Position numbers and translations under genes: made by a program
Origin: an uncultured virus (IMG/VR IMGVR_UViG_3300026095_000001)
Lineage: Duplodnaviria > Heunggongvirae > Uroviricota > Caudoviricetes > Crassvirales
IMG/VR virus record: IMGVR_UViG_3300026095_000001
Length of the DNA: 20,000 nt
Reading direction: 5' to 3' (one strand)
Notes under the pieces: model-generated
What the model was told of the DNA's origin: nothing
The model's input: the letters and a program-made list of their open reading frames with translations, nothing else
Databases searched by the model: none
In this document: in pieces, positions 18,096 through 20,000 of the stretch
How positions within the stretch are numbered: the first letter of the stretch is position 1
Layout: the number at the start of each line of letters is the position of its first letter

Positions 18096-18554
18096 ATGAG
18101 TCTTAAAAGTTTTATCGATGGCATATGGTCGGCCATTAAAGGCCTATTCCATAAGCTGGAACAGGAAGAAAAGAAGCTCCTCCCCATCGTGATCACGGTG
18201 GTGCAGAACATCAAGAATTTCACGGATAGTCCTGTCGCGGATGTCATTACGGCCCTCATTCCAGGTGATGTGGATGACAGGATCAGAGAGAGGCTGGAAG
18301 ATTATCTGCCCAAAATCTTGATGGAGCTGAACATGCTCAATACCTGTCAGGCGCTTCCGGATGCCAATGCACAGCTGCAATGCATTTTACAAAACCTGAA
18401 GTTATCCTCAGACTCGGCGAAGGATATCTATTATCATGGGTTGGCTTCGTTGATCCTGACGGACCTGTCGGATGGAAAACTTTCCTGGAGTGATTGCGTG
18501 GGGATCGCAGAGTACTATTACAAAAACATTTGGAAGGAGCAGCCGGCAGCGTAA
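18096..18554 (+). CDS. Hypothetical protein (152 aa, amphipathic N-terminal helix)
   Basis: A-rich start context and contiguous with the lysis genes; no family recognised. Confidence 0.7.
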   Translation: MSLKSFIDGIWSAIKGLFHKLEQEEKKLLPIVITVVQNIKNFTDSPVADVITALIPGDVDDRIRERLEDYLPKILMELNMLNTCQALPDANAQLQCILQNLKLSSDSAKDIYYHGLASLILTDLSDGKLSWSDCVGIAEYYYKNIWKEQPAA

Positions 18555-18557
18555 CTA

Positions 18558-18842
18558 TTATATAGCGTTGATATCTTTCATTTGTTGCAGGCGAGAAATA
18601 ACTCCGTCGCGCATTTCTTTCCCATATCCTTCGAATACATTTTCATTGAGCAAATGTATGACCCGATCATGGGGCATTCCATTTTGGACCAAATCCTTAT
18701 AAAGTGTGATCCAGCATGGAACCATATTGTTATCATGTAGTTTTTCGAAAATAATGGCAAGCGGAATGCCTTGGCTATGATACATAGCTCCTATGCCGTT
18801 CATAACGGGCTTCCCGTCCTTAGTGATGCCGACTTGCTTCAT
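18558..18842 (-). CDS. Small inverted accessory gene resembling the 'LYDTYGFP' helical segment of alanyl-tRNA synthetase
   Basis: 94 aa filling the gap between + strand genes. NGIGAMYHSQGIPLAIIFEKLHDNNMVPCW aligns by eye with the AlaRS pattern G..AF.LYDTYGFP.DL......E.N..VD. Confidence 0.6.
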   Translation of the reverse strand: MKQVGITKDGKPVMNGIGAMYHSQGIPLAIIFEKLHDNNMVPCWITLYKDLVQNGMPHDRVIHLLNENVFEGYGKEMRDGVISRLQQMKDINAI

Positions 18843-18862
18843 GAGTTACAGGTTTTATGATG

Positions 18863-18943
18863 AAAAAGAAGCCAACCCTTTCACATAGTCAAGTTGGCTT
18901 CTGATAAAAAGAACTAATCCTATTGCTAGGCGTCTCAAAGATA
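18863..18943 (-). ncRNA. Candidate sRNA unit 1 (promoter + ~70-nt RNA + terminator)
   Basis: Minus strand: TATCTTTG at 18943-18936 with TTG 18 nt upstream; CCTA-GCAA-TAGG hairpin; 10-bp terminator stem 18902-18893/18876-18867 followed by a U-tract. Confidence 0.55.
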
Positions 18944-18959
18944 AGGAGTTCCCTCGAAT

Positions 18960-19044
18960 AACAAGAAAGCCCCATTGAAATGGGGCTCGATATCTCTAAC
19001 CAAAGTAACGGTCTCTTGCTGAGACAATACTTATGGCAAATATA
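18960..19044 (-). ncRNA. Candidate sRNA unit 2
   Basis: Minus strand: TATATTTG at 19044-19037; GTCTC-AGCAA-GAGAC hairpin; single-stranded GTTACTTTGGTTAGAG; 8-bp terminator stem 18987-18980/18975-18968 followed by TTCTTGTT. Confidence 0.6.
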
Positions 19045-19061
19045 ATATGATTAAATGACAC

Positions 19062-19151
19062 AAAAGGCGGGAGCTGTAGAAACAGCCCCCTAGTTTTAAA
19101 CTATAGACCCGTTGCGCTTATGAAGCAGCCCGGTCTGAGGCTGTAAATATA
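19062..19151 (-). ncRNA. Candidate sRNA unit 3
   Basis: Minus strand: TATATTTA at 19151-19144 with TTTG 18 nt upstream. Terminator GGGGGCTGT-ttct-ACAGCTCCC-gccTTTT, whose G-U pair works only on the minus strand. Confidence 0.5.
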
Positions 19152-19161
19152 TATAAAAAGG

Positions 19162-19626
19162 ATGAAAGACAAAATAACAGCTGAACGCATCGAACAATTG
19201 CACCCCGATGTACGCGAGCGCTTCACAGATTTCATCAATGAAGTAGAACAAACACTGGGTGTCACAATTCGGATGGAGCCGCCGCTGCGGACGTTCGCCG
19301 AACAACAGGCCATTTGGGACAGAGGGCGGACCATGCCGGGGAAGATCGTAACCTGGGCTCCTCCTGGCAGCTCGTATCATAACTATGGGCTGGCCGCTGA
19401 TCTTTGCCCTTTCAAAGCAGACTACAGTGACCTGGATTGGAACTATGATTTCAGCAAGTGGAAATCCATTGCTACAAAGCATGGCCTTACCTGGGGCGGC
19501 GACTTTCCCAAAGGGAAGACAGACCCGGATCATTTCCAATATACGGCGGGCCACAACTGGCGCGACTTGCTGCATAAATACGAGACGAAAGACTTCCTAC
19601 CGGGGACGGAGTATGTGAAGCTGTGA
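19162..19626 (+). CDS. Endolysin, M15 family (L-Ala-D-Glu peptidase, CwlK/Ply500-like)
   Basis: Zn-peptidase motifs R.FAEQ....RGRT.PGKIVT.A.PG.SYHNYGLAAD and WGGDF....DPDHFQ. Confidence 0.92.
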   Translation: MKDKITAERIEQLHPDVRERFTDFINEVEQTLGVTIRMEPPLRTFAEQQAIWDRGRTMPGKIVTWAPPGSSYHNYGLAADLCPFKADYSDLDWNYDFSKWKSIATKHGLTWGGDFPKGKTDPDHFQYTAGHNWRDLLHKYETKDFLPGTEYVKL

Positions 19627-19660
19627 AATAAAAGAAGGTCCCCGAAATGGGGACCTTCTT
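19626..19660. terminator. Bidirectional terminator between the endolysin and the integrase
   Basis: Perfect 12-bp inverted repeat AAGAAGGTCCCC-gaaat-GGGGACCTTCTT (19632-19660) between convergent genes. The U-tract is stronger on the minus strand. Confidence 0.85.
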
Positions 19661-19706
19661 ACGAAAAAATCAACATGCCTGTGGAGGGGATAAAGATACG
19701 GTTTTT

Positions 19707-20000
19707 TTAGAACTTCCGGCGCACGTCGTGGCGAACCCTGTCCAGTCTCAGCCCCAGCCCCTTCGATAAGTACCGCTCCGTCATGCTGGGCTTACTATGC
19801 CCACAAAGCTGCTGAATGGCGGCAAGAGCGATACCTTCCTGCCAGAGATGAATGCACCGTGTATGTTTGAAACAATAGGGGGTTAGCCGATCATCCAGCC
19901 CGTGCGGCTCCCGCACCTGCATCCGGAAAACTTCAGAATAAAACGACTCCCGGATGGGCTTCGGTCCTGGCGGACCGTCCTCTCCAAAGATGTAATATTC
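19707..20000 (-). CDS. int: Tyrosine recombinase/integrase, C-terminal part (5' end outside the window)
   Basis: Frame open to the window edge: EYYIFG...YCFKHT...IQQLCGHSKPSMTERY, giving the box II motifs and the catalytic Tyr. Confidence 0.9.
   Translation of the reverse strand, partial: EYYIFGEDGPPGPKPIRESFYSEVFRMQVREPHGLDDRLTPYCFKHTRCIHLWQEGIALAAIQQLCGHSKPSMTERYLSKGLGLRLDRVRHDVRRKF

Follow-up and report, generated by a model that had tools for sequence, protein, structure and literature searches.

The subject of this analysis is a 319-nt intergenic gap in a 20,000-nt stretch of DNA from an uncultured virus (IMG/VR record IMGVR_UViG_3300026095_000001), hereafter called the window, in which the gap separates a minus-strand gene for a 94-residue protein (p94) from the plus-strand gene of an M15-family endolysin. 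The gap carries three head-to-tail minus-strand units, each with a promoter-like element followed by a terminator-like hairpin, and this three-unit arrangement is not the product of base composition. A moron is an extra transcription unit of a temperate phage (Hendrix/Juhala definition), and we tentatively read the gap, with a confidence that falls a little short of even, as the minus-strand control region of a moron-like insertion placed beside one older, conserved unit, with hairpins that would act as one-way terminators. The units are called A, B and C from the endolysin toward p94, and it is likely that short minus-strand RNAs are made from them.

In every unit the minus strand presents, in the same order, a -33-like element, a -7 box, a short 5′ hairpin, a U/G-rich single strand, a GC-rich hairpin and a T-rich tail (Table 1). 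The sigma-A promoters of Bacteroidota have the -7 consensus TAnnTTTG with TTTG near -33 (PMC7366714; PMC9723704), and the -7 box occupies -12 to -5 relative to the start of transcription (PMC9723704), from which the starts and RNA lengths given below were predicted. An initial annotation of this DNA had placed the three -7 boxes at 18936, 19037 and 19144, and all three were found there, with spacings of 101 and 107 nt along the gap. Terminator-like hairpins lie 45-55 nt downstream of the -7 boxes in all three units, and these hairpins were called on the minus strand both by a consensus scan and by our own scanner, which made no such call for the plus strand. The -33 elements of units B and C sit within the T-tracts of the preceding terminators. 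The promoter elements by which Bacteroidota small RNA (sRNA) genes are recognized (PMC7366714) are present in units A, B and C, with the last box base of unit A off consensus and CTTG as the -33 element of unit C, and an intrinsic terminator on the same strand, which is the companion mark of such genes, is likewise present in all three, the loop of hairpin C being unusually large.

Table 1. Coordinates of the three minus-strand units and of the features around them (positions in the window; arrows follow the minus strand).
Feature	Position	Strand	Remarks
Unit C -7 box TATCTTTG	18943->18936	-	exact TAnnTTTG; candidate p94 promoter
Unit C -33-like CTTG	18962-18965	-	18-nt spacer
Unit C 5′ hairpin CCTA-GCAA-TAGG	18919..18930	-	weak, -2.5 kcal/mol; directly past predicted start ~18931
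Unit C single-stranded U-rich tract	18903..18918	-	from folds
Unit C hairpin and U5 tract	18862..18902	-	stem 18902->18867, 12 bp including 2 G.U, 12-nt loop, tail TTTTCATCAT
Unit B -7 box TATATTTG	19044->19037	-	exact consensus; predicted start ~19032
Unit B -33 TTTG	19061-19064	-	16-nt spacer; within T-tract of terminator A
Unit B 5′ hairpin GTCTC-AGCAA-GAGAC	19011..19025	-	weak, -5.7 kcal/mol
Unit B single-stranded tract CGTTACTTTGGTTAGAGATATC	18989..19010	-	from folds
Unit B terminator-like hairpin and tail TCTTGTTATTCG	18955..18988	-	stem 18988->18967, 9 bp, 1 G.U, loop TTCA; tail read as TCTTGTTATT in scan
Unit A -7-like box TATATTTA	19151->19144	-	last base off consensus (A for G); predicted start ~19139
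Unit A -33 TTTG	19170-19173	-	18-nt spacer; within first endolysin codons
Unit A conserved block CGGGTnTnTAGnTTnAAACTAG (against G003); core TTAGGTTTA in L006	19091..19111	-	z 5.1, 0/300 shuffles
Unit A terminator-like hairpin and tail GCCTTTTGTGTC	19057..19090	-	stem 19090->19069, 9 bp, 1 G.U, loop TTCT; tail read as GCCTTTTGTG in scan
p152	18096..18554	+	last gene of long structural/late block before gap; function unassigned
p94 open reading frame	18558..18842	-	left border of gap
Gap	18843-19161		319 nt, between p94 and endolysin
M15-family endolysin	19162..19626	+	PF13539 2.2e-10, PF02557 4.1e-9, phrog_2649 endolysin 3.8e-28
Symmetric 12-bp terminator	19632..19660	both	endolysin/integrase interval; -22.0 and -22.5 kcal/mol on the two strands
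Tyrosine integrase, C-terminal part	19707..20000	-	PF00589 1e-8, phrog_1 1.6e-10

The minus-strand polarity that had been proposed from wobble pairs and U-tracts was confirmed. G.U pairs occur on the minus strand only (1, 1 and 2 in stems A, B and C, the plus strand having A.C mismatches at these positions), the hairpins on the plus strand have no U-tract apart from a weak TAGTTTT after A, and the minus-strand forms of hairpins A, B and C are more stable than the plus-strand forms by 4.3, 1.2 and 2.3 kcal/mol, respectively. The gap as a whole folds better than its shuffles, with z -3.9 for the minus strand and -2.85 for the plus strand. The units share architecture and not sequence, as had been described (all pairwise z < 1 among A, B and C), the 5′ hairpins with GCAA-containing loops in units B and C are present, though weak, and the three A/C-rich plus-strand tracts that had been quoted from the gap are there as well. 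Open reading frames within the gap are short, of 8-30 codons only; a 15-codon plus-strand frame (MMKKKPTLSHSQVGF) at 18857-18904 spans hairpin C, and a minus-strand ATG-TGA start-stop pair lies within the loop of the same hairpin.

As a control for chance, 1000 dinucleotide shuffles of 18801-19200 were scanned in the same way, and a cassette was defined as a terminator-like hairpin preceded at 25-75 nt by a TAnnTTT[GA] box. None of the 1000 shuffles contained at least three terminators, two contained at least two, and at least one box-plus-terminator cassette was found in six. The exact box TAnnTTTG occurs nine times on the two strands of the 20 kb, against 11.2 expected from shuffles, and two of the nine lie within the gap. 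Cassettes as defined here were formed by 4 of the 11 hairpins of the window, namely the three units and the 3′ untranslated region (UTR) of the integrase gene (19698 -> 19660-19632), and by 5 of the 39 terminator-like hairpins of a related 76.6-kb phage record, G003. A lone cassette can therefore arise without meaning, since the integrase 3′ UTR and these hairpins of G003 have the same form; a single box-plus-terminator pair may arise by chance, and three adjacent ones are much less likely to do so. Taken together, the motifs, the shuffle counts, the polarity of the G.U pairs and the folding z scores show that the description of the gap as three units is correct and that composition is not its cause.

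The comparison with relatives covered 25 metagenome loci, 2 viral loci and 1 genome locus, the search of viral contigs having returned 1 locus with the endolysin and 2 with p152. Among the loci compared, the junction of p152 with an M15 endolysin occurs only in G003 (L001 and L002, which are the same IMG/VR record), in L006 and in L005; the last is identical to the window across the gap, and the independent junction relatives are two, G003 and L006. In both of these, p152 (83% identical between the window and L001:2436-2900) and the endolysin gene are adjacent, ~100 nt apart, with no p94, no unit B and no unit C. Because neither relative has p94, B or C between these two genes, the window looks like the bearer of a moron-like insertion of ~0.5 kb (~18555-19060), and the stretch around these coordinates has a lower GC content (0.41-0.43). 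Neither IMG/VR nor 401 sampled Bacteroidota genomes yielded unit B or unit C, and a search of the viral contigs with the L006 endolysin and the exact unit B string returned nothing. The DNA of 18555-19161 gave only scattered matches of 23-43 nt in the same 401 genomes (per-genome E 0.003-0.01), which we read as noise, and window positions 18400-19700 found nothing among the INPHARED phages by blastn.

Unit A, on the other side of the insertion, recurs. A hairpin lies directly past the p152 stop codon in both L001 and L006, with a minus-strand T-rich tail that reads CTATTTTTAAGC in L001 and TCTATTTCAGGC in L006, and ahead of it a block of 11-22 nt is kept, whose likeness between the window and G003 is not reached by any of the shuffles (Table 1). 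A minus-strand box is found 9-14 nt upstream of the endolysin ATG (TATATTTA in L001 and TATCTTTG in L006), and upstream of this box comes a -33 TTTG with spacers of 19 and 22 nt, respectively. In the G003 homologue of hairpin A a G.U pair again forms on the minus strand alone, and the L006 hairpin is symmetric. A degenerate pattern built on unit A matched only G003 itself in the viral contigs. The structural conservation in relatives that the initial annotation had named as a test is thus present in part: the position and design of unit A recur in 2 of 2 relatives, with hairpins that are unalignable, and units B and C are without relatives.

At the other end of the gap, the minus-strand left-hand neighbour p94 had no place as a real gene in the initial annotation. 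The size of its family and its predicted fold mark p94 as a real gene, of 94 aa, which would be the cargo of the putative moron-like insertion. An exhaustive HMMER search gave 262 representatives with E<=1e-3, of which 35 have E<=1e-10; most are 90-130 aa long, several homologues share the start residue, and an AlphaFold model built from 57 sequences has a mean predicted local distance difference test score (pLDDT) of 96. The family of ~90-130 aa is unannotated, and it is mostly viral according to the ESM Atlas rows. Neither Pfam nor PHROG gave a hit for p94 itself, a word-index search found p94 alone, searches of the viral contigs with p94 and with its homologue P0080 returned nothing, and tblastn against INPHARED gave one distant match in an Aeromonas phage (23.5% identity). 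Two weak matches to the p94 profile in the 401 Bacteroidota genomes lie within long open frames and are probably alanyl-tRNA synthetase (AlaRS) genes. Comparison of the model with the PDB by Foldseek gave nothing at E<=0.001, and VIA-align reached at most Z 5.8, with generic helical proteins and no AlaRS chain among the matches listed. PF01411 (AlaRS) matches 8 of the 57 family members weakly (best E 1.7e-4), and the family profile aligns to residues 380-420 of E. coli AlaRS (PDB 3hxu) with E 0.04, around a Y-E/D-T-x-G-L/F-P-L motif; from the roles of its residues, we take this stretch of AlaRS to be a tRNA-recognition part.

The link between p94 and the array is unit C. Only 24 nt separate the end of hairpin C from the p94 ATG and no -7 box fits between them, so unit C is the sole visible promoter of p94 and is most likely, as the arrangement suggests, its promoter and hairpin leader. 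The predicted leader, from the start of transcription to p94, is ~89 nt long and comprises the GCAA hairpin, the U-rich single strand and, followed by U5, hairpin C; a scan of the gap against Rfam gave no match to a cis-regulatory family for it. Hairpin C would be either a leaky terminator, that is an attenuator, or a hairpin of the 5′ UTR. We consider it leaky because its 12-nt loop is large for an intrinsic terminator, and because unit C abuts the start of p94 it may be the 5′ UTR of this gene and not an independent gene. This bears on the proposal of three independent sRNAs in the initial annotation: the architecture on which the proposal was built holds for all three units, and the first of them (unit C here), which ends 24 nt before the start of p94, is more simply explained as a promoter and leader.

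Given these observations, we propose that the gap would serve as the minus-strand transcription-control region of the moron-like insertion and that it adjoins an older unit, A. All three hairpins would be intrinsic terminators working in one direction, on minus-strand transcripts only, such that late plus-strand transcription would pass them to reach the endolysin gene and minus-strand transcription would be cut into short pieces. The late transcript would have to cross the gap because no conserved plus-strand promoter precedes the endolysin: the only candidate in the window, TAGTTTTA, is not conserved in L001 or L006. Unit C would drive p94, most of its transcripts stopping as an RNA of ~68 nt and a fraction continuing into p94. 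From units B and A, each complete in itself, non-coding RNAs of ~75 and ~81 nt would arise. Unit A would predate the insertion, and its predicted RNA would be antisense to the intercistronic leader of the endolysin; the antisense relation of the units to late read-through into the endolysin, which had been suggested at the outset, is borne out by their position. The motifs, the hairpins, their strand polarity, p94 as a gene, the insertion and the recurrence of unit A are observed; that the promoters are active, that transcripts end at the hairpins, how long the RNAs are and what they would regulate are predictions from sequence. The pairing of a transcription start site with an intrinsic terminator is what marks validated candidates among the intergenic sRNAs of Bacteroides (PMC7366714).

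Several observations weigh against this proposal. The combination of box and terminator is also found in the integrase 3′ UTR and in 4 other G003 hairpins, and the 5′ hairpins of units B and C are weak (-5.7 and -2.5 kcal/mol). If termination at hairpin C were efficient, p94 would hardly be expressed; an alternative, antiterminator fold of the p94 leader was not seen (by eye only), and no terminator-like hairpin was found downstream of p94 on the minus strand. For unit A, RNAalifold on the three sources, with only 2 independent relatives among them, predicted no pairs, because the three unit A hairpins share no sequence and MAFFT cannot align them. Furthermore, the unit A box, which ends in A where the consensus has G, falls in the A/T-rich stretch immediately ahead of the endolysin start codon and its -33 TTTG comes from Lys codons, for which reason the conservation of both elements may serve the endolysin.

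The main alternative would take the hairpins as plain terminators or insulators that keep antisense transcription out of p94 and the late operon, with boxes A and B arising by chance, only the p94 promoter being real and no separate regulatory RNAs being produced. This is unlikely in our judgement. In its favour, distant relatives have an ordinary terminator after p152, the unit A box falls in the A/T-rich region upstream of the endolysin, chance-like cassettes do exist (the integrase 3′ UTR and the 5 of 39 in G003), and terminator B resembles the integrase/endolysin terminator (local alignment z 5.3, reached by 1 of 300 shuffles), as a duplicate would. That likeness could reflect duplication or merely the common composition of terminators. 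What speaks against plain insulation is that a box stands at 45-55 nt in 3 of 3 adjacent terminators and in only ~5 of 46 elsewhere, that two of the boxes are exact consensus although the 20 kb hold just nine exact matches, and that insulation needs one terminator only. In addition, little minus-strand transcription would arrive at the gap to be stopped, because a strong terminator (19660-19632) follows the integrase gene. If, instead, the hairpins were plus-strand elements that stabilize the late polycistronic mRNA, or serve its processing, in the interval from p152 to the endolysin, the probable passage of the late transcript through the gap, for which no conserved plus-strand promoter was found, and the better-than-shuffled folding of the plus strand (z -2.85) would be accounted for. 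We regard this as very improbable: in 4 of 5 unit hairpins the plus strand has A.C mismatches where the minus strand has G.U pairs, the stems are followed by T-tracts only when the minus strand is read, and a transcript of the plus strand would run antisense to p94 over part of its way.

The initial annotation had gone further and had seen in the units a battery of trans-acting RNAs whose U/G-rich single strands would pair with A/C-rich initiation regions of phage, host or competitor-phage mRNAs. The sequence of promoter, 5′ hairpin, single strand and terminator is indeed that of GibS- and FopS-type sRNAs, which pair with start regions (PMC7366714 and PMC11697453), and a FopS-like sequence has been reported in a Bacteroides phage (PMC11697453). 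A conserved block ahead of a variable terminator, as seen in unit A, is also a typical sRNA pattern. The pairing itself was not borne out in the window: against its 16 start regions, shuffled tracts did as well as the three single-stranded tracts in fractions of 0.44, 0.57 and 0.31, and a scan of the whole window for targets of the three tracts returned only their own complements. Moreover, B and C are not conserved in the collections searched, unit C abuts a gene start, and the Rfam comparison that had been suggested brought no family, there being no match at E<=1 over the window and, for the gap alone at E<=10, only noise far below gathering scores. A FopS model is deposited in Rfam (PMC11697453), and the scan of the window gave no match to a GibS/FopS-family covariance model or to an R1 seed. 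Trans-acting initiation blockers are thus unsupported here, and we hold three independent trans-acting sRNAs to be distinctly improbable. A bolder form of the same idea would see here three unrelated sRNA genes, the first such battery in a Bacteroidota phage outside FopS/GibS, made in the lysogen and acting in trans on the starts of host or rival-phage mRNAs, with p94 as a possible RNA-binding partner, or as an autoregulator acting on its own hairpin leader; either role would follow from the weak likeness of p94 to the tRNA-recognition part of AlaRS, and this version strikes us as a long shot.

Under the reading that we prefer, a control region of a moron-like insertion beside an older unit, the array can be compared with several known systems. 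It is like a moron in that p94 has its own promoter-like box, lies between genes that are adjacent in relatives and has a lower GC content. Unlike in a moron, the terminators lie upstream of p94 and none lies downstream, and two further promoter-terminator units travel along. The OOP RNA of phage lambda is a short cis-antisense RNA, and the predicted RNA of unit A, at ~80 nt, with its own promoter and terminator and antisense to the endolysin leader, would resemble it. Unlike OOP, the predicted unit A RNA would overlap neither a coding region nor a start codon, its start falling ~23 nt upstream of the ATG.

In layout the units are like the intergenic sRNAs of Bacteroides thetaiotaomicron (GibS and the FopS family), whose promoters are of the sigma-ABfr type and which join a single-stranded 5′ portion to a Rho-independent terminator hairpin in less than 100 nt (PMC7366714 and PMC11697453). 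GibS and FopS pair with translation-initiation regions, and a sequence resembling FopS was seen in a Bacteroides phage (PMC11697453). In contrast to them, the present units are without a sequence or Rfam match, are not paralogous to one another and are known here from sequence alone, and the likely host is not a gut Bacteroides. Short promoter-to-terminator genes in variable regions of temperate phages are also known as the sRNA genes and arrays of prophages, such as PasB/EcOnc22-24 and StxS of E. coli prophages and SprY of an S. aureus phage (PMC7547250 and PMC8501977), and the units would have the same form and setting. StxS in particular is a short RNA from a promoter that is followed immediately by a terminator ahead of a gene (same sources), as we propose for unit C and p94. 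The units differ from PasB, StxS and SprY in phylum and in promoter type and have no homology to them, no antiterminator was identified, and those RNAs were validated experimentally whereas the units are read from sequence. Prophage sRNA genes and arrays being well documented in E. coli and S. aureus, the present array would be a further, well-founded candidate.

What sets the array apart is the presence of putative one-way terminators inside a late operon and the overlap of T-tracts with -33 elements, together with the fact that one unit is tied to an inserted gene and one recurs at the gate of a lysis gene. The one-way design would show how a late operon can take up an insertion while its transcription still reaches the endolysin. 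Little is known about the regulatory RNAs of Bacteroidota, and next to nothing about those of Bacteroidota phages; if it is transcribed, the gap would offer, within 300 nt, a test bed of three promoters of the sigma-A type, three terminators that work in one direction, a candidate attenuator in a leader and a candidate antisense RNA at a lysis gene.

The window covers the right-hand portion of a tailed temperate phage or prophage. Shine-Dalgarno motifs are found at 0 of its 17 gene starts, several of which have A-rich upstream regions. p152 has 78 homologues in the protein collection, eight of which (P0003-P0010, mostly from Logan assemblies) are 78-88% identical to it. Among the 401 sampled Bacteroidota genomes 2 have homologues inside prophages, namely one Mucilaginibacter genome and one other Bacteroidota genome, in both of which they lie at prophage ends beside tRNA genes. 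A Bacteroidota host is likely on this evidence, that is, because of the lack of Shine-Dalgarno starts and the p152 homologues in Bacteroidota prophages, in agreement with the setting that the initial annotation had assumed.

Some further observations concern the terminators and the region between the lysis genes and the integrase. Terminator B (18967-18988) and the 19632-19660 terminator have in common CCCCATTTC and a CTTCTT-TTATT tail. The box of the integrase 3′ UTR, TATCTTTA, lies at 19691-19698 on the minus strand, 9 nt past the integrase stop and 30 nt ahead of the terminator, and the pair is a chance case or possibly gives a very short 3′-UTR RNA. In G003 a further orphan cassette is found on the minus strand at 40977-41049 (L001 4117-4189; 41049->40977), in which the box TATTTTTG is followed at 43 nt by a 9-bp hairpin with the loop AGCA and a T5 tract. 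This cassette sits directly past the last plus-strand gene of the lysis block of G003, and its hairpin resembles terminator B (z 3.4), including a C-G to U-A change on both sides. G003 also has tRNA-Pro and tRNA-Ser genes between the lysis genes and the integrase and a tRNA-Met gene beside the integrase (L001 4366-4531 (+) and 5038-5112 (-)), and no tRNA gene was found in the window. From these differences, the interval between lysis genes and integrase appears to be a variable region in this phage group. In the distant relatives p152 is followed by an ordinary or two-way terminator or by tRNA genes, and L010, L011, L013, L020 and L022-L026 have an ordinary terminator right after it. In L004, L016-L018, L029, L009, L012 and L037 the prophage genes end with the p152 homologue, which borders directly on one or two tRNA genes of the host, and this is probably the attachment site.

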